Positions 37,570 to 57,747 of a DNA stretch of 64,000 nt are shown piece by piece; position 1 is the stretch's first letter; each line of letters begins with the position of its first letter. The notes under the pieces are model-generated. The model searched no databases, was not told where the DNA came from, and worked only from the letters and a program-made list of their open reading frames with translations. This DNA comes from Escherichia coli. Its GTDB lineage: Bacteria > Pseudomonadota > Gammaproteobacteria > Enterobacterales > Enterobacteriaceae. Made by a program: the position numbers and the translations under genes. The DNA is taken from NCBI RefSeq assembly GCF_003334355.1, contig NZ_QOWP01000009.1; one strand, given 5' to 3'.

Positions 37570-37660
37570 GCGATCAGGAAGACCCTCGCGGAGAACCTGA
37601 AAGCACGACATTGCTCACATTGCTTCCAGTATTACTTAGCCAGCCGGGTGCTGGCTTTTT
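37570..37660 (+). ncRNA. ryhB: Iron-responsive small RNA RyhB
   Basis: GCGATCAGGAAGACCCTCGCGGAGAACCTGAAAGCACGACATTGCTCACATTGCTTCCAGTATTACTTAGCCAGCCGGGTGCTGGCTTTTTTTTT matches the RyhB sequence as I recall it; ends in hairpin GCCAGC-CGGGT-GCTGGC plus a T9 tract; lies between yhhY and yhhX. Confidence 0.9.
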
Positions 37661-37780
37661 TTTTGATCTTTCGTTCTCAATTTATCCACGGGAGTGCTTG
37701 TGTTCGTTATGCGCACTCCAGTAGGAACCACGTCCGCTTTGCGCTAAGGTGTAAATAACCACCTTAAAAAGGACGAAATC

Positions 37781-45082: not shown

Positions 45083-47269
45083 ATGTCCGATCGTATCGAT
45101 AGAGACGTGATTAACGCGCTAATTGCAGGCCATTTTGCGGATCCTTTTTCCGTACTGGGAATGCATAAAACCACCGCGGGACTGGAAGTCCGTGCCCTTT
45201 TACCCGACGCTACCGATGTGTGGGTGATTGAACCGAAAACCGGGCGCAAACTCGCAAAACTGGAGTGTCTCGACTCACGGGGATTCTTTAGCGGCGTCAT
45301 TCCGCGACGTAAGAATTTTTTCCGCTATCAGTTGGCTGTTGTCTGGCATGGTCAGCAAAACCTGATTGATGATCCTTACCGTTTTGGTCCGCTAATCCAG
45401 GAAATGGATGCCTGGCTATTATCTGAAGGTACTCACCTGCGCCCGTATGAAACCTTAGGCGCGCATGCAGATACTATGGATGGCGTCACAGGTACGCGTT
45501 TCTCTGTCTGGGCTCCAAACGCCCGTCGGGTCTCGGTGGTTGGGCAATTCAACTACTGGGACGGTCGCCGTCACCCGATGCGCCTGCGTAAAGAGAGCGG
45601 CATCTGGGAACTGTTTATCCCTGGGGCGCATAACGGTCAGCTCTATAAATACGAGATGATTGATGCCAATGGCAACTTGCGTCTGAAGTCCGACCCTTAT
45701 GCCTTCGAAGCGCAAATGCGCCCGGAAACCGCGTCTCTTATTTGCGGGCTGCCGGAAAAGGTTGTACAGACTGAAGAGCGCAAAAAAGCGAATCAGTTTG
45801 ATGCGCCAATCTCTATTTATGAAGTTCACCTGGGTTCCTGGCGTCGCCACACCGACAACAATTTCTGGTTGAGCTACCGCGAGCTGGCCGATCAACTGGT
45901 GCCTTATGCTAAATGGATGGGCTTTACCCACCTCGAACTACTGCCCATTAACGAGCATCCCTTCGATGGCAGTTGGGGTTATCAGCCAACCGGCCTGTAT
46001 GCACCAACCCGCCGTTTTGGTACTCGCGACGACTTCCGTTATTTCATTGATGCCGCACACGCAGCTGGTCTGAACGTGATTCTCGACTGGGTGCCAGGCC
46101 ACTTCCCGACTGATGACTTTGCGCTTGCCGAATTTGATGGCACGAACTTGTATGAACACAGCGATCCGCGTGAAGGCTATCATCAGGACTGGAACACGCT
46201 GATCTACAACTATGGTCGCCGTGAAGTCAGTAACTTCCTCGTCGGTAACGCGCTTTACTGGATTGAACGTTTTGGTATTGATGCGCTGCGCGTCGATGCG
46301 GTGGCGTCAATGATTTATCGCGACTACAGCCGTAAAGAGGGGGAGTGGATCCCGAACGAATTTGGCGGGCGCGAGAATCTTGAAGCGATTGAATTCTTGC
46401 GTAATACCAACCGTATTCTTGGTGAGCAGGTTTCCGGTGCGGTGACAATGGCTGAGGAGTCTACCGATTTCCCTGGCGTTTCTCGTCCGCAGGATATGGG
46501 CGGTCTGGGCTTCTGGTACAAGTGGAACCTCGGCTGGATGCATGACACCCTGGACTACATGAAGCTCGACCCGGTTTATCGTCAGTATCATCACGATAAA
46601 CTGACCTTCGGGATTCTCTACAACTACACTGAAAACTTCGTCCTGCCGTTGTCGCATGATGAAGTGGTCCACGGTAAAAAATCGATTCTCGACCGCATGC
46701 CGGGCGACGCATGGCAGAAATTCGCGAACCTGCGCGCCTACTATGGCTGGATGTGGGCATTCCCGGGCAAGAAACTACTGTTCATGGGTAACGAATTTGC
46801 CCAGGGCCGCGAGTGGAACCATGACGCCAGCCTCGACTGGCATCTGTTGGAAGGCGGCGATAACTGGCACCACGGTGTCCAGCGTCTGGTGCGCGATCTG
46901 AACCTCACCTACCGCCACCATAAAGCAATGCATGAACTGGATTTTGACCCGTACGGCTTTGAATGGCTGGTGGTGGATGACAAAGAACGCTCGGTGCTGA
47001 TCTTTGTGCGTCGCGATAAAGAGGGTAACGAAATCATCGTTGCCAGTAACTTTACGCCGGTACCGCGTCATGATTATCGCTTCGGCATTAATCAGCCGGG
47101 CAAATGGCGTGAAATCCTCAATACCGATTCCATGCACTATCACGGCAGTAATGCAGGCAATGGCGGCACGGTACACAGCGATGAGATTGCCAGCCACGGT
47201 CGTCAGCATTCACTAAGCCTGACGCTACCACCGCTGGCCACTATCTGGCTGGTTCGGGAGGCAGAATGA
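45083..47269 (+). CDS. glgB: 1,4-alpha-glucan branching enzyme GlgB
   Basis: 728 aa ORF; GH13 motifs (e.g. GFDGFRFDGV-like region [10 protein letters not shown]). Confidence 0.95.
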
Positions 47270-49239
47270 CACAACTCGCCATTGGCAAACCCGCTCCCCT
47301 CGGCGCGCATTACGACGGTCAGGGCGTCAACTTCACACTTTTCTCCGTTCATGCCGAGCGGGTAGAACTGTGTGTCTTTGACGCCAATGGCCAGGAACAT
47401 CGCTATGACTTGCCAGGGCACAGTGGCGACATTTGGCACGGTTATCTGCCGGATGCGCGCCCGGGTTTGCGTTATGGTTATCGCGTTCATGGCCCCTGGC
47501 AACCCGCCGAGGGGCATCGCTTTAACCCGGCGAAGTTGTTGATTGATCCTTGCGCGCGGCAAATTGACGGGGAGTTTAAAGATAACCCGCTGCTGCACGC
47601 CGGTCATAATGAACCTGACTATCGCGACAACGCCGCCATTGCGCCGAAATGCGTAGTGGTGGTTGATCACTATGACTGGGAAGATGATGCCCCGCCGCGC
47701 ACGCCGTGGGGCAGCACCATCATTTATGAAGCCCATGTCAAAGGATTAACGTACTTGCACCCGGAGATCCCGGTCGAGATCCGTGGCACTTATAAAGCCC
47801 TCGGGCATCCGGTGATGATCAACTATTTGAAACAATTGGGCATTACCGCGCTGGAACTGCTGCCAGTGACGCAGTTTGCCAGTGAACCACGTCTGCAACG
47901 CATGGGGCTAAGTAACTACTGGGGTTACAACCCGGTGGCGATGTTTGCGCTGCATCCGGCGTATGCCTGCTCGCCAGAAACGGCGCTGGATGAGTTTCGC
48001 GATGCAATCAAAGCACTGCATAAAGCGGGTATCGAAGTCATTCTTGATATCGTGCTCAACCATAGTGCGGAACTGGACCTCGACGGCCCGTTATTCTCGC
48101 TGCGTGGGATCGATAACCGTAGCTATTATTGGATAAGAGAAGACGGCGATTATCACAACTGGACCGGTTGCGGCAACACGCTCAATTTGAGTCATCCGGC
48201 GGTGGTGGATTATGCCAGCGCCTGCCTGCGTTATTGGGTAGAAACCTGCCACGTCGATGGTTTCCGCTTTGATCTGGCGGCAGTCATGGGCCGTACGCCA
48301 GAGTTCCGTCAGGATGCGCCGTTGTTTACCGCTATCCAGAACTGCCCGGTGCTCTCGCAGGTGAAGTTAATTGCTGAACCGTGGGATATCGCTCCTGGTG
48401 GTTATCAGGTGGGAAATTTCCCGCCGCTGTTTGCCGAGTGGAACGATCATTTCCGCGATGCTGCCCGTCGTTTCTGGCTGCATTATGATTTGCCTCTGGG
48501 GGCGTTTGCCGGGCGTTTTGCTGCCTCCAGCGATGTTTTTAAACGTAATGGTCGTCTGCCGAGTGCCGCGATTAATCTCGTCACCGCACATGACGGTTTT
48601 ACGCTTCGCGACTGCGTTTGCTTCAACCATAAACACAATGAAGCAAACGGAGAAGAAAATCGCGACGGGACCAACAACAATTACAGTAACAATCATGGTA
48701 AAGAAGGGTTAGGCGGTACTCTTGATCTGGTTGAACGGCGGCGCGACAGCATTCATGCCCTGTTAACAACGTTGTTGCTCTCCCAGGGCACGCCGATGTT
48801 ACTGGCCGGTGACGAACATGGTCACAGCCAGCATGGCAATAACAATGCCTACTGTCAGGATAACCAATTAACCTGGTTGGACTGGTCGCAGGCAAGCAGT
48901 GGTTTAACCGCATTTACCGCCGCGTTAATCCATCTGCGCAAGCGTATTCCCGCTTTGGTGGAGAATCGCTGGTGGGAAGAAGGCGACGGCAATGTCCGTT
49001 GGCTAAATCGATATGCTCAACCTTTAAGCACGGATGAGTGGCAAAACGGGCCGAAACAGCTGCAAATTCTGCTCTCGGATCGCTTTTTGATCGCAATTAA
49101 CGCCACGCTTGAGGTAACAGAGATTGTTTTACCTGCTGGGGAGTGGCACGCCATTCCCCCATTCGCTGGAGAGGATAACCCAGTGATTACGGCTGTCTGG
49201 CAGGGACCTGCACACGGATTGTGTGTGTTCCAGAGATGA
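47266..49239 (+). CDS. glgX: Glycogen debranching enzyme GlgX
   Basis: 657 aa ORF; GH13; 4-bp overlap with glgB. Confidence 0.95.
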
Positions 49240-49250
49240 TAAAAAAGGAG
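49211..49250 (+). promoter_or_regulatory. glgC leader: GGA-loop hairpin and GGA-containing Shine-Dalgarno (CsrA target sites)
   Basis: Hairpin CACAC-GGATT-GTGTG (49211..49225) with GGA in the loop, then AAGGAG (49245..49250) 6 nt before the glgC ATG; matches the described CsrA-binding architecture of the glgC leader. Confidence 0.6.
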
Positions 49251-49256
49251 TTAGTC

Positions 49257-50552
49257 ATGGTTAGTTTAGAGAAGAACGATCACTTAATGTTGGCGCGCCA
49301 GCTGCCATTGAAATCTGTTGCCCTGATACTGGCGGGAGGACGTGGTACCCGCCTGAAGGATTTAACCAATAAGCGAGCAAAACCGGCCGTACACTTCGGC
49401 GGTAAGTTCCGCATTATCGACTTTGCGCTGTCTAACTGCATCAACTCCGGGATCCGTCGTATGGGCGTGATCACCCAGTACCAGTCCCACACTCTGGTGC
49501 AGCACATTCAGCGCGGCTGGTCATTCTTTAATGAAGAAATGAACGAGTTTGTCGATCTGCTGCCAGCGCAGCAGAGAATGAAAGGGGAAAACTGGTATCG
49601 CGGCACCGCAGATGCGGTCACCCAAAACCTCGATATTATCCGCCGTTATAAAGCGGAATACGTGGTGATCCTGGCGGGCGACCATATCTACAAGCAAGAT
49701 TACTCGCGTATGCTTATCGATCACGTCGAAAAAGGCGCACGTTGCACCGTTGCTTGTATGCCAGTACCGATTGAAGAAGCCTCCGCATTTGGCGTTATGG
49801 CGGTTGATGAGAACGATAAAATTATCGAATTCGTTGAAAAACCTGCTAACCCACCGTCAATGCCGAACGATCCGAGCAAATCTCTGGCGAGTATGGGTAT
49901 CTACGTCTTTGACGCCGACTATCTGTATGAACTGCTGGAAGAAGACGATCGTGATGAGAACTCCAGCCACGACTTTGGCAAAGATTTGATTCCCAAGATC
50001 ACCGAAGCCGGTCTGGCCTATGCGCACCCGTTCCCGCTCTCTTGCGTACAATCCGACCCGGATGCCGAGCCGTACTGGCGCGATGTGGGTACGCTGGAAG
50101 CTTACTGGAAAGCGAACCTCGATCTGGCCTCTGTGGTGCCGGAACTGGATATGTACGATCGCAATTGGCCAATTCGCACCTACAATGAATCATTACCGCC
50201 AGCGAAATTCGTGCAGGATCGCTCCGGTAGCCACGGGATGACCCTTAACTCACTGGTATCCGGCGGCTGTGTGATCTCCGGTTCGGTGGTGGTGCAGTCC
50301 GTTCTGTTCTCGCGCGTTCGCGTGAATTCATTCTGCAACATTGATTCCGCCGTATTGTTACCGGAAGTATGGGTAGGTCGCTCGTGCCGTCTGCGCCGCT
50401 GCGTCATCGATCGTGCTTGTGTTATTCCGGAAGGCATGGTGATTGGTGAAAACGCAGAGGAAGATGCACGTCGTTTCTATCGTTCAGAAGAAGGCATCGT
50501 GCTGGTAACGCGCGAAATGCTACGGAAGTTAGGGCATAAACAGGAGCGATAA
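49257..50552 (+). CDS. glgC: Glucose-1-phosphate adenylyltransferase GlgC
   Basis: ORF track 49221..50552; start at ATG 49257 ([17 protein letters not shown]...) gives 431 aa; GGRGTRL nucleotide-binding motif. Confidence 0.94.
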
Positions 50553-54566: not shown

Positions 54567-56083
54567 ATGGAAAGAATAATGCAAAACAGAAAATGGATTT
54601 TGACCTCGCTGGTAATGACTTTTTTCGGCATCCCCATTCTGGCGCAGTTTTTGGCGGCGGTTATTGCCATGCTGGGTGTCGGACTTGCCGGTATTATTGA
54701 AGTTTGTAATATCTTTATCACGCCAACAATTTACCTTCTGCTCAACGTCTTTATGCTGACGCTGGGGGCGATAATAATATTTTTCTCTGGTCGCGTGTGG
54801 GCCGGTGATAGCGCGCCAGAAAACAGAGAAATAGCCGTCTGGCGGCAATGCTTTTTTCTCTTACCCGCGCTATTAACCCTGGTTGGCTGGATAATCACGC
54901 TACATCTGGCAGATTATCAATTTCGCCAGATGGGAGCTGGTTGGTTGGCAAACCTTATGCTTCCCTGGTTGGCGTTTTTTTAGTCTCATTAGTGGGTGGT
55001 GAGTACTGGTGGATGGTCATTATTCCCGTTGGGGCGCATATCAGTTTTTCGCTGGGATACGCCTGGCCGACCAGATATCCTTTATCCGGCACGTCCGGAC
55101 TACGTTGCCGTAACTTACTCCTGTTTCTACTTCTCTTACTTGGTATTGTCGCCGGGTATCAGGCCCATTTATATAAGCAGCAAAATCCTGGTGTCGGTGT
55201 ACGCGAAAATATTGATATCTGGGCCTGGCGACCCGATAAACTCAATAATCGACTGACGCCGCTGCGTGGCAAACCGCAAATTCAGTTTAGGCAAAACTGG
55301 CCGCGAATCGATGGCGCCACGGCTGCGTACCCAATTTATGCTTCTGCATTTTATGCATTAAGTGTAATACCAGAGGATTTTCACGTTTGGGATTATCTGG
55401 AAAACTCTCGTACGCCAGAAGCATATAACAAAATCGTTAAGGGCGATGCTGATATTATTTTCGTGGCGCAACCTTCCGGTGGGCAAAAAAAACGTGCAAA
55501 GGAATCTGGTGTCACTTTGCTGTACACCCCCTTTGCCCGTGAAGCATTCGTTTTCATCGTCAATGCGGATAATCCGGTTAATTCCCTGACTGAACAACAG
55601 GTGCGTGACATTTTCAGTGGTGCAATTACCAATTGGCGTGCTGTTGGCGGTAACGATCAGGAGATCCAGACCTGGCAGCGCCCGGAAGACTCTGGCAGCC
55701 AGACAGTGATGCAATCACAGGTCATGAAAAATGTCCGCATGATCTCGCCGCAGGAAACGAAAGTGGCAAGCGTGATGGAGGGAATGATTAAAGTCGTTGC
55801 CGAATACCGTAATACAAACAACGCAATAGGCTATACCTTCCGCTATTACGCGACGCAAATGAATGCTGATAAAAATATAAAATTGCTAGCGATTAACGGT
55901 ATTACACCGACGGCGGAAAACATTCGCAACGGCAAATATGCGTACATCGTCGATGCATTTATGGTGACGAGAGAAAATACAACGTCAGAAACACAAAAAC
56001 TGGTCGAATGGTTTTTAACGCCGCAGGGGCAGAGTCTGGTAGAAGATGTGGGATATGTGCCGCTGTATCCAACAATGGAATAA
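54567..56083 (+). pseudogene. Membrane-anchored PstS-like periplasmic-binding-domain protein, apparently disrupted by a +1 frameshift at a T7 tract (yzgL-like locus)
   Basis: Frame A ORF 54567..54983 (multi-TM) ends at TAG inside a T7 run (54975..54981); frame B ORF 54848..56083 continues with TM-like segments and a C-terminal PBP/PstS-like domain (DSGSQT..AIGYTFRYY..YVPLY). One extra T would fuse them into a single ~505-aa ORF. TATAAT at 54544..54549. Confidence 0.5.
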
Positions 56084-56108
56084 CGCTCGAGAGAAAGGAA
56101 TCAGCGAG

Positions 56109-57101
56109 ATGAATAAATTCACCGGTGTTTTACTATTAGGCACGGCGTTACTGGCGGGATGTGTCGACCGGGAAGGGTACTATAACAGCGTTAGGGAAGA
56201 AGAGAGCCATGGACTGACGTCTCTGCGGGGGCAACCTGCATTACGTTACAGCGATGATTGGTCAAGATGGCCGAGAGTGTACGGCGCTACAGCCTTATAC
56301 CCGCTGTATGCCTCCGCGTATTATAAATTAGTACCCGAGCCAAAAGATAAGGATCGAACCTCGCTGGCCTGGCAGGCGTATGGTTTGCAGCAAACCCGAA
56401 CAGCTGAAGCCTACGATAGTCTGATTAAAGGTTCCGCGACGGTTATTTTTGTTGCACAACCGTCGGAAGGACAGAAAAAACGTGCAGAAGAAGCGGGTGT
56501 TAAACTGAAATATACCGCTTTCGCCCGCGAAGCCTTTGTCTTTATCGTTGATATTAATAACCCGGTAAATTCTCTCTCTGAGCACCAGGTTAAAGATATT
56601 TTTAGCGGCAAAACTAGCCGCTGGAATAAAGTAGGTGGTAGTGACGAACATATAAAAGTCTGGCAGCGCCCTGAAGATTCTGGAAGCCAAACGATTATGA
56701 AGGGGTTGGTTATGCAAGACACCCCAATGCTGCCAGCTAAAAAATCCACTGTGATTGATCTTATGGGCGGTTTAATTACTGAAGTTGCCGACTATCAAAA
56801 CACGCCATCTTCCATTGGGTACACCTTCCACTATTACGTCACTCGTATGAATGACAATATGCTCAAAATGCGCAAGCAGATTAAACTTTTGGCTATAAAT
56901 GGCGTTGCGCCTACCGAGGAAAATATCCGCAACGGCACTTATCCATACATTGTGGATGCCTATATGGTGACGCGTGAAAATCCCACGCCGGAAACGCAGA
57001 AATTTGTTGACTGGTTTATAAGTCAGCAGGGGCAACAGTTGGTAGAGGATGTGGGGTATGTGCCGCTGTATGAAGCATCCCCCGAATCATCAGGACAATA
57101 A
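56109..57101 (+). CDS. Lipoprotein with PstS-like periplasmic substrate-binding domain (paralog of the upstream gene's C-terminal domain)
   Basis: ORF track 56046..57101; start at ATG 56109 (MNKFTGVLLLGTALLAGC lipobox) after AAAGGA; the domain aligns by eye with 54848..56083 (AREAFVFIV, NPVNSL, WQRPEDSGSQT, IGYTF.YY, LLAINGV.PT.ENIRNG, VEDVGYVPLY). Confidence 0.7.
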   Translation: MNKFTGVLLLGTALLAGCVDREGYYNSVREEESHGLTSLRGQPALRYSDDWSRWPRVYGATALYPLYASAYYKLVPEPKDKDRTSLAWQAYGLQQTRTAEAYDSLIKGSATVIFVAQPSEGQKKRAEEAGVKLKYTAFAREAFVFIVDINNPVNSLSEHQVKDIFSGKTSRWNKVGGSDEHIKVWQRPEDSGSQTIMKGLVMQDTPMLPAKKSTVIDLMGGLITEVADYQNTPSSIGYTFHYYVTRMNDNMLKMRKQIKLLAINGVAPTEENIRNGTYPYIVDAYMVTRENPTPETQKFVDWFISQQGQQLVEDVGYVPLYEASPESSGQ

Positions 57102-57703
57102 TGATGAATATAATCAGACTTTATATTTATCCGTTATTTCTCGGCTTTGTTATTGTGCCGTTGTTGGTGTGGCCGATGGTGGTTGCGCTGGCTGCTTGTA
57201 TTATCACGCTGAGTTTTCTGGGGGAAATGCTGTTCTCAATCCCGCTCATGATCAGGCGTATTTCACTTCTGCAATTACAACTTTGGTTATCGGCTGAATA
57301 TGCGCTTTTCTTCTGTGTAATGTGTTGCGTTGGTTGGCAATTTACTCGTAGAACTCAATCTGAATTGAAAAGCAGGCTCCATTGTTGATTGGTATTCGCA
57401 CCGATCTATTTATGGTTGATCCTCTGGAATATCATTTTTTACATCGCGCCAGCGAAAATTGCGTTGCTGGAAAGTATCCGCAATTTCTTTCTGCTTGTTG
57501 TCTGGCTACCCCTGAATTTTTCGCCATTTTGGCCTCAGCCGTGGACGGATTTTATCGGTCCAATAAGCGCACAGCTTGGTTTTGCGTTGGGATATTATTG
57601 CCAGTGGTGCAGCAAAAATAGATGCCAGATACGGAAGTTGAGTGAGTGGGGAACGTGCTTAAGTTTTGTTACGTTGGGTATGATGGCGTGGGCTTTGCGG
57701 TAA
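57101..57703 (+). pseudogene. Small polytopic membrane protein ORF interrupted by an in-frame TGA (two ORF-track pieces 57101..57388 and 57389..57703)
   Basis: ATG 57101 overlaps the stop of the upstream lipoprotein gene (TAATG); ORF reads through to TGA at 57386..57388 and continues in the same frame from 57389 to 57703. The distal part (GPISAQLGFALGYYCQW) resembles the membrane segment of 54567..56083 (PVGAHISFSLGYAWPTR). Confidence 0.35.
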
Positions 57704-57747
57704 TTCCCTGAATCAAAAAGTAGGTCAGATTGTTGACAACGTGGCGC

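Follow-up and report, generated by a model that had tools for sequence, protein, structure and literature searches.

The leader of glgC in the analysed window, which is the whole 64-kb stretch of E. coli chromosome studied here, presents one GGA in the loop of a hairpin and a second in the Shine-Dalgarno (SD) sequence, and this element is almost certainly the CsrA operator of the glgC (glgCAP) mRNA. We found nothing that contradicts this reading. The element is already known and well studied, the glgC leader being the founding example of CsrA translational repression and a standard reporter of CsrA activity. Direct binding of CsrA and CsrA-dependent repression are reported for this exact sequence, and the literature is also our source for bridging by the dimer, exclusion of the ribosome, and destabilisation of the mRNA.

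In the mechanism proposed here, the hairpin at 49210-49226, with ACGGAUU at its tip, would dock the CsrA homodimer with high affinity by one of its RNA-binding faces. The second face of the tethered dimer would then reach the weaker site 31 nt downstream, in the AAGGAG at 49245-50. Occupation of the SD would keep the 30S subunit out and block glgC translation, and the untranslated message would then decay faster. Sequestration of CsrA by the CsrB and CsrC RNAs would free the SD and raise glycogen synthesis.

Gene layout and leader boundaries

All features of this locus are on the plus strand. The upstream gene, glgX (glycogen debranching enzyme, 47266..49239), ends in the stop codon TGA at 49237..49239, 17 nt before the ATG of the regulated gene, glgC (glucose-1-phosphate adenylyltransferase, 49257..50552). 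Both coding sequences come from the ORF list and from annotation, for glgX that of RefSeq on an identical E. coli record, in which the glgX end and the glgC start fall at exactly these points of the sequence. An in-frame GTG at 49221 opens a 443-aa ORF but was rejected as the glgC start, because it is the annotated ATG, at 49257, that follows an AAGGAG by 6 nt and serves as the start in all orthologues. The last 39 codons of glgX overlap the glgC leader, and both glgBXCAP and glgCAP operon transcripts have been reported.

The 5′ end of the glgCAP leader can be placed at two positions. The published 134-nt leader would span 49123..49256, with the +1 at 49123 inferred from primer arithmetic: the glgC leader transcript used for gel shifts is a primer-defined 134-nt RNA from +46 to +179, and its primers match the window exactly at 49168-49301 (PMC2896534). 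A proximal alternative is 49196, where the 61-nt glgC 5′UTR of published reporters begins (PMC6028588, supplementary table), and the window from 49196 to 49356 is letter for letter the glgC 5′UTR reporter sequence of that study. No sigma-70 consensus promoter was detected in a scan of 48700-49400, so the inferred +1 at 49123 lacks support from a consensus promoter. No Rfam family covers the glgC leader, the sole Rfam match in the window being RyhB (37599-37663).

The hairpin and its accessibility

The CACAC-GGATT-GTGTG hairpin given in the preliminary description was borne out both by direct reading of the sequence (CACAC 49211-49215, GGATT 49216-49220, GTGTG 49221-49225) and by folding, and an independent hairpin scan also lists it. 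The stem reaches six pairs with G49210-U49226, so that the upper hairpin, the high-affinity CsrA site, spans 49210..49226 (GCACAC 49210-15, loop GGAUU 49216-20, GUGUGU 49221-26). In E. coli, five further pairs are predicted between GGGAC (49203-07) and GUUCC (49227-31), a lower stem that encloses the upper hairpin in a larger stem-loop, H3 (49203..49231). The lower stem was rejected as a conserved feature, as in most other genera its two outer pairs do not form. The AAGGAG of the SD (49245..49250) ends 6 nt before the ATG; its GGA (49247-49) is described in the literature as the lower-affinity CsrA site, at which CsrA competes with the 30S subunit. The distance from the loop GGA (49216) to the SD GGA (49247) is 31 nt, in agreement with the roughly 30 nt first estimated. 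Placement of the element inside the 3′ end of glgX holds for the hairpin, which is made of the final glgX codons, but not for the SD, which sits in the 17-nt glgX-glgC spacer.

The loop GGA had been expected to stay unpaired, and it largely did: in the fold of 49190-49270, the GGAUU loop is present in both the minimum free energy (MFE) and centroid structures. The stem pairs have a probability of 0.81-0.93 (about 0.9) across folding contexts of 36 to 401 nt, and every context folded leaves G49217 and A49218 unpaired (P = 1.0). At G49216 the unpaired probability falls to about 0.6: the (GU)n 3′ arm permits a 2-nt register shift, and a triloop closed by a G-U pair could form as well. For the SD GGA it is about 0.85-0.96. 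The hairpin z-scores are modest, at −1.65 over 36 nt (H3, MFE −13.4 kcal/mol) and −2.2 over 21 nt. Over the whole region the folding energy is unremarkable (z = −0.11 over 81 nt, and −0.69 when the 138-nt leader is taken), and unusual stability is confined to individual hairpins.

The position of the hairpin could also suit a stem-loop that serves mainly RNA metabolism or coupling, not CsrA docking. It begins 14 nt into the 61-nt 5′UTR and lies 11 nt upstream of a glgX stop codon that is itself only 17 nt from the glgC ATG, and glgBXCAP and glgCAP transcripts are both reported. It might be a 5′ stabilising hairpin of the short transcript with the 61-nt leader, a boundary at which an RNase separates glgX from glgC, or, on the glgBXCAP polycistron, an element of ribosome pausing or unfolding by which initiation at glgC is coupled to termination at glgX. 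However, such roles are not reported in the cited glgC literature, none of them explains the retained loop GGA, and they could coexist with CsrA binding without replacing CsrA. The scan of 48700-49400 also found no terminator-like feature, and a terminator role for the hairpin was rejected on that ground. We consider this explanation very unlikely.

Published evidence on the same sequence

The identification of this sequence as the classic CsrA-repressed glgC leader proved correct. The sequence is identical to that of the E. coli leader studied by Baker et al. 2002 and Mercante et al. 2009 (after the accounts in PMC7652899 and PMC2896534); it is the same element with no difference, down to the loop and SD GGAs, the location in the glgX 3′ end, and the tether-and-bridge mechanism. 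We took the footprint details from later papers that describe Baker 2002, Mercante 2009, and Dubey 2005. CsrA footprints on both the hairpin loop and the SD of glgC (PMC7652899), so that the footprint maps to the hairpin seen here, and the same two primary sites are given in PMC2896534; a review counts four CsrA sites in the glgC leader, two of them primary. The hairpin is a high-affinity tether from which one CsrA dimer bridges to the SD (PMC7652899, PMC2896534), and full repression is lost with a one-sided dimer (PMC7652899). Bridging has a range of 10-63 nt with an optimum above 18 nt (PMC7652899); the 31 nt in glgC lie within the range and above 18 nt. The footprinted site outside the SD is ACGGA (PMC6028588), which corresponds to 49214-49218 in the window, and point mutations in it alter repression in vivo (PMC6028588). 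In Salmonella, CsrA CLIP-seq reads overlap the GGA hairpin near-perfectly in vivo, and derepression of glgC-gfp depends on CsrB (PMC5207318); the same fusion is a standard CsrA reporter (PMC10729762). For each outcome that would speak against CsrA binding or repression at the two GGAs, published work reports the opposite.

The Salmonella enterica hairpin (PMC5207318) is orthologous and keeps the geometry seen here (41 nt from the loop G to the ATG, 31 nt from one GGA to the other), but its letters differ (GCGCAU-GGACU-GUGUGU in L055 and L060), with one U-G wobble and one G-U pair. The leader of the ColE7 lysis gene cel (PMC2896534) is alike in its T1 hairpin-loop GGA, its SD GGA, and ribosome exclusion, whereas its plasmid sequence is unrelated and its hairpin terminates transcription of the genes that precede it; glgC RNA is a competitor of this leader for CsrA (PMC2896534). 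CsrB also displays GGA in hairpin loops, but CsrB and CsrC are decoys, unlike the regulated glgC message. CsrA sites are more numerous than in glgC in cstA (up to 4), pgaA (6), and CsrB (22) (PMC2896534, PMC10729762). Against the SELEX consensus RUACARGGAUGU, whose ACA and GGA are invariant and whose GGA lies in the loop of a hairpin (Dubey 2005, as quoted in PMC7652899), glgC has ACAcGGAU at 49212-49219: by direct reading, ACA and GGA are present, yet only 8 of 12 positions match, with mismatches at 49211, 49215, 49220, and 49221. The SD site also scores 8/12.

Motif frequency, coding, and conservation

The motif pattern alone is not enriched beyond chance. GGA occupies the loop of such hairpins at 29 positions in the 64-kb window, compared with 33.5 in shuffles, and a composite motif (a loop GGA followed at a distance of 10-63 nt by RGGA-N5-11-ATG) turns up once, compared with 1.43 ± 1.23. 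ACANGGAT also occurs once, below the 6.2 expected by chance, and so carries no statistical weight. As the pattern is not rarer than chance, motif enrichment was not used as evidence, and the case is made by the location at a genuine gene start, by conservation, and by the published experiments.

The element is invariant in E. coli and retained across Enterobacteriaceae. For glgX/glgC, the match to E. coli is 100% in 5426 of 5426 complete genomes, and the 67-nt core has at least 99% identity in 5382 of the 5426. Among the 59 leaders in which the scan found a hairpin, the final GGA ahead of the start codon is 10 nt upstream of the ATG in 58 and 11 nt in the remaining one, L024. Among 82 distinct Enterobacterales sequences, 94% of the upper-stem cells are paired, but a partner slid by −2 pairs almost as well (92%) because of the CA/GU repeats. 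In alignment A1, 81.7% of cells are paired, compared with 80.1% in shuffles and 76.7% with a slide of −2; five pairs show double changes, a number that 21 of 500 shuffles reach. One pair in which two wobble positions face each other, 49212/49224, alternates between G-C (35), A-U (10), and G-U (9), while the two such pairs are mismatched in 12/66 and 16/66 sequences. The covariation is thus weak, since coding fixes most stem positions and the repeat allows the −2 register, and we do not claim it as statistical proof of structure.

These constraints raise the question of whether the hairpin is a by-product of codons for the GlgX C-terminal peptide, with regulation, if any, at the SD only. The peptide Ala-His-Gly-Val/Leu-Cys-Val is encoded by GCN CAY GGN GTN TGY GTN, which would be self-complementary by chance, and chance GGA-loop hairpins of similar size are common, as the 29 in the window attest. 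The tail W(H/Q)GPAHG(V/L)CVF is conserved, being near-invariant among the 84 Enterobacterales junctions that were retained and aligned. Of the six pairs in the upper stem, four (49210/26, 49211/25, 49213/23, and 49214/22) scarcely vary and are set by codon positions 1 and 2 of this tail, so that stem conservation cannot be put down to RNA alone. The span in which synonymous recoding bears on this explanation is glgX codons 649-654.

The third base of the loop codon speaks differently. The loop GGA (49216-18) doubles as an in-frame Gly codon of glgX, and 40 of 66 distinct Enterobacterales sequences (61%) use the rare GGA for this codon, against a background of 8.9% among 270 Gly codons in asd and glgBXCAP. 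A comparison Gly codon 12 nt upstream drifts freely and is GGA in only 17 of the 66. From the sequence comparisons, retention of the loop codon as GGA is the best independent signal. A compensatory exchange of G-C for A-U at two facing wobble positions also argues against a by-product, footprint, mutation, and CLIP-seq data put CsrA on the loop, and the published ACGGA mutants already change CsrA-dependent glgC expression (PMC6028588). A mere by-product of coding is, on this evidence, hardly credible.

Just as improbable is a leader that is primarily a small RNA target with the exposed loop and SD as seed-pairing sites: direct base-pairing of CyaR with the glgC transcript was reported by RIL-seq, and CyaR and ChiX raise glgC-gfp with or without CsrA, but these effects are small relative to the ~9-fold change on CsrB titration of CsrA, no pairing site was mapped to the glgC-leader hairpin (PMC10729762), and such control would be an added layer, not an alternative to CsrA.

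Other hairpins and lineage variants

Two further hairpins fold upstream of the CsrA docking hairpin. H1 (49138..49159) pairs GGGGAGUGG with CCAUUCCCC around a CACG loop (MFE −16 kcal/mol, z −3.0) and hides its GGA (49140-42) in the stem; in the 82 Enterobacterales sequences, 92% of its cells are paired, compared with 52-67% when the partner is slid. H2 (49163..49186) pairs UCGCUGG with CCAGUGA around a 10-nt loop, AGAGGAUAAC (MFE −9.1 kcal/mol, z −3.7), with 84% of cells paired, compared with 17-59% when slid. Its loop shows a further GGA (49173-75), unpaired with P = 0.96 and kept in 55 of 82 sequences, which may be an additional, accessory CsrA site. H2 did not figure in the preliminary description.

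The arrangement differs in some lineages. In Klebsiella, Raoultella, Kluyvera, Pseudocitrobacter, and Trabulsiella, a spacer insert of ~40-75 nt places the hairpin 71-104 nt from the SD, past the bridging range that has been tested. In most Erwiniaceae, GGY replaces GGA in the loop, as in Pantoea or Erwinia leaders with GGU or GGC. As side observations, the hairpin is 97 nt from the SD in the Klebsiella/Raoultella leaders L093 and L113, and Raoultella has another GGA site, CUGGGAUGU, 21 nt upstream of the ATG.

Biological implications

The preliminary description recognised a genuine cis-regulatory RNA from the raw sequence. The element adds nothing new to biology; what is new here is the coordinates, the folding probabilities, and the comparative picture only. 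The modest value of that picture is comparative, in that a regulatory RNA structure lies inside the coding end of the upstream gene and a rare codon is apparently held by RNA function.

We can only speculate on how this arrangement evolved. A tentative reading, which we regard as possible but doubtful as a whole, joins dual coding, in which the CsrA docking hairpin consists of translated glgX codons, to a rewiring of the leader in the Klebsiella group and another in Erwiniaceae. If dual coding is true, selection at the RNA level would hold the rare GGA Gly codon and help to freeze the GlgX C-terminal peptide. Ribosomes ending glgX on full-length glgBXCAP transcripts would also strip CsrA from the message, and repression would therefore be specific to the glgCAP transcript isoforms. 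The arrangement varies within Enterobacterales, and this variation may help in designing experiments on the divergence of glycogen synthesis control by CsrA.

Results

The CACAC-GGATT-GTGTG hairpin of the preliminary description can be read directly upstream of glgC (CACAC 49211-49215, GGATT 49216-49220, GTGTG 49221-49225), and its stem comes to six pairs once G49210-U49226 is added. The glgC Shine-Dalgarno sequence (SD), AAGGAG (49245-49250, + strand), lies 6 nt before the ATG at 49257, and GGA 49216 is separated from GGA 49247 by 31 nt, in agreement with the offset of about 30 nt first claimed. The same account placed the arrangement inside the 3′ end of glgX (47266-49239, + strand), which holds for the hairpin but not for the SD, located in the 17-nt spacer between the glgX stop codon TGA (49237-49239, + strand, read from the sequence) and glgC (49257-50552, + strand). 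Both genes were delimited from the ORF list and from an annotated identical E. coli record, where glgX ends at window position 49239 and glgC starts at 49257.

The genes asd, glgB (45083-47269), glgX, glgC, glgA, and glgP follow one another on the + strand. Stop and start codons overlap by 4 nt between glgB and glgX (47266-47269) and by 1 nt between glgC and glgA (50552); the glgX/glgC junction differs from these neighbors in its 17-nt spacer, the seat of the CsrA-controlled SD. The window belongs to the E. coli chromosome. Every one of the 5426 complete E. coli genomes searched contained a match to a 901-nt query around the hairpin, mostly with no less than 99% identity and over annotated glgX and glgC; for a 67-nt core, 5382 of them reached this level. 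Elsewhere in the window, two PstS-family phosphate-binding protein genes and one hypothetical gene (named after the colinear ATCC 8739 record) lie between glgP and glpD (~54576-57704). The segment 35089-36392 departs from E. coli ATCC 8739, where an IS1 insertion and a truncated tssD occur; here the yrhA-tssD (Hcp-like) region is intact, as in strain HS and ~70% of complete genomes. The RyhB small RNA is found at 37599-37663 (+ strand; full-length Rfam match, 83.1 bits).

A published 161-nt glgC 5′UTR-plus-coding sequence (PMC6028588 supplement) matches 49196-49356 exactly, its start codon at position 62 falling on 49257, and the transcript numbering of PMC2896534, together with its primer positions in the window, places the published +1 at 49123, giving a 134-nt leader. 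One CsrA site of this leader overlaps the SD and the second lies in a single-stranded hairpin loop just upstream (PMC7652899), in agreement with the two primary sites of PMC2896534. The footprinted non-SD site, named ACGGA (PMC6028588), corresponds to 49214-49218 and thus falls on this hairpin; point mutations in it alter repression in vivo (PMC6028588). For the glgC leader of Salmonella, CLIP-seq reads of CsrA “almost perfectly overlapped” the hairpin bearing GGA, and over-expression of CsrB derepressed glgC-gfp (PMC5207318), which serves as the standard CsrA reporter (PMC10729762). The exact match and the published CsrA data therefore support the interpretation originally offered, a classic CsrA-repressed two-site leader, and show that the element was already known. 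The finding is real, rightly placed, and rightly interpreted; it is not new.

Folding of 49190-49270 left the loop GGA exposed, whereas pairing of this GGA would have refuted the original interpretation: in both the minimum free energy (MFE) and centroid structures, GGAUU forms a 5-nt loop and the SD lies within a large loop. Partition functions were computed on seven nested windows, from the isolated 23-nt hairpin up to 401 nt. Each of the six stem pairs formed with a probability of 0.81-0.93 once the window was at least 36 nt long (six windows), but of only ~0.4 in the isolated hairpin. G49217 and A49218 were unpaired with a probability of 1.0 in all seven windows, and the SD GGA with 0.85-0.96 in the five that reach it. 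G49216 was unpaired with a probability of only ~0.6 in windows of at least 36 nt, because the (GU)n 3′ arm can also pair two bases out of register, as it does in the MFE structure of the hairpin folded alone (21-23 nt). The CACAC/GUGUGUGU repeat (49210-49228) has two registers, with GGAUU or GAUUG as the loop, the latter holding the first G of GGA in a G-U pair. In E. coli, a lower stem of five pairs (49203-49207 with 49227-49231) is predicted to favor the GGAUU register.

On motif grounds, the hairpin and SD pattern is not beyond chance. Across the window, 29 GGAs (13 on the + strand, 16 on the −) lie in the loop, 4-8 nt long, of a hairpin with five perfect pairs, compared with 33.5 in shuffles. 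A hairpin of this kind with RGGA-N5-11-ATG 10-63 nt downstream was seen a single time, against 1.43 ± 1.23 in shuffles, and ACANGGAT occurs once where 6.2 are expected. Hairpin stability is moderately unusual (z = −1.65 over 36 nt, −2.2 over 21 nt), and no unusual stability was found for the larger 81-nt (z = −0.11) and 138-nt (z = −0.69) regions. The case therefore rests on context, conservation, and experiment.

A degenerate pattern based on the GlgC motif GGRGTRLKD returned at least 120 loci in a single scan of species-representative genomes. Among the matches listed, to which all following counts apply, 91 had an enterobacterial-type GlgC N-terminus and at least 130 nt upstream, and 84 had the homologous end of glgX, from which 66 distinct 39-mers were obtained. 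At the protein level, the tail W(H/Q)GPAHG(V/L)CVF of GlgX is nearly invariant, and four of the six upper-stem pairs, which show almost no variation, involve codon positions one or two, so that their conservation is not attributable to RNA alone. At the two wobble-wobble pairs, the counts are 35 G-C, 10 A-U, 9 G-U, and 12 unpaired for 49212/49224, and 42 C-G, 5 U-G, 2 U-A, 1 G-U, and 16 unpaired for 49215/49221. Total pairing was 81.7% versus 80.1% in shuffles, and, owing to the CA/GU repeats, sliding the partner by −2 still left 76.7% paired. No conservation of the lower stem (49203-49207/49227-49231) was seen across the aligned sequences. The covariation evidence is no more than suggestive. 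At the sequence level, the in-frame glgX Gly codon of the loop (49216-49218) is a cleaner signal than stem covariation: it is GGA in 40 of the 66 distinct sequences (raw counts, kinship ignored), against a GGA share of 8.9% among 270 Gly codons of the six genes from asd to glgP in this window. The Gly codon 12 nt upstream (49204-49206) varies freely, with GGA in 17 of 66 (kinship likewise ignored). Codons other than GGA occur mostly in Erwiniaceae (Pantoea, most Erwinia, Mixta), and also in Siccibacter, Pluralibacter gergoviae, Leclercia, and Silvania. The Erwiniaceae named keep the hairpin with GGU or GGC in the loop (twelve loci and others); Erwinia persicina retains GGA.

The 134-nt leader holds two more hairpins, both within glgX. 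H1 (49138-49159; nine pairs, GGGGAGUGG/CCAUUCCCC; −16 kcal/mol, z = −3.0) sits close to the leader's 5′ end with its own GGA buried in the stem. H2 (49163-49186; seven pairs, UCGCUGG/CCAGUGA; z = −3.7) exposes GGA 49173-49175 in a 10-nt loop, AGAGGAUAAC, with an unpaired probability of 0.96. Across 82 distinct sequences among the matches listed, 92% of the pair-by-sequence cells were paired for H1 versus 52-67% when slid, and 84% for H2 versus 17-59%; the H2 GGA was retained in 55. H2 is a plausible candidate for an accessory CsrA site. Baker 2002 reportedly described four CsrA sites.

Discussion

The observed anatomy, exposure, spacing, and identity, combined with binding and functional effects taken from the literature, make a tether-and-bridge model almost certain for this leader. 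CsrA would dock on the hairpin loop, the docked dimer would bridge to the SD, and occupation of the SD would exclude the 30S subunit, with destabilization of the glgC mRNA as a secondary effect. The hairpin is described as a high-affinity site that tethers CsrA before the dimer bridges to the SD. Such bridging spans 10-63 nt and works best above 18 nt, and full repression takes both dimer faces (PMC7652899).

A role of the hairpin in RNA stability, processing, or coupling is improbable, although it could be an additional function: no terminator was found at the locus, and the literature consulted on the glgC leader holds no report of such a role. Still less probable is that the leader acts as a small RNA target; pairing of CyaR with the glgC transcript was reported from RIL-seq (PMC10729762), but the effects are small and no pairing site was mapped to this hairpin. 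That the hairpin is purely a by-product of glgX coding is just as hard to credit, given the footprints, mutants, CLIP data, and retained rare GGA codon.

A second glgC-like gene in Cedecea sulfonylureivorans, Enterobacter sp. 10-1, and Raoultella planticola (N-terminus MNKPENHD... or MSKIEYTD...) has neither an upstream glgX nor a homologous hairpin. Among the matches listed, Klebsiella oxytoca, Raoultella, Kluyvera, Pseudocitrobacter, Trabulsiella, and Enterobacter sp. 10-1 have their hairpin GGA 71-104 nt away from the GGA of the SD, beyond the 10-63 nt bridging range quoted in PMC7652899; in a Pluralibacter-like group the distance is intermediate, at 44-51 nt. The wide spacing is due to inserts of ~40-75 nt in the spacer that separates the end of glgX from the SD of glgC (seven loci); these inserts bring new GGA motifs, such as CUGGGAUGU. 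From sequence comparison, these spacing variants suggest that some rewiring may have taken place.
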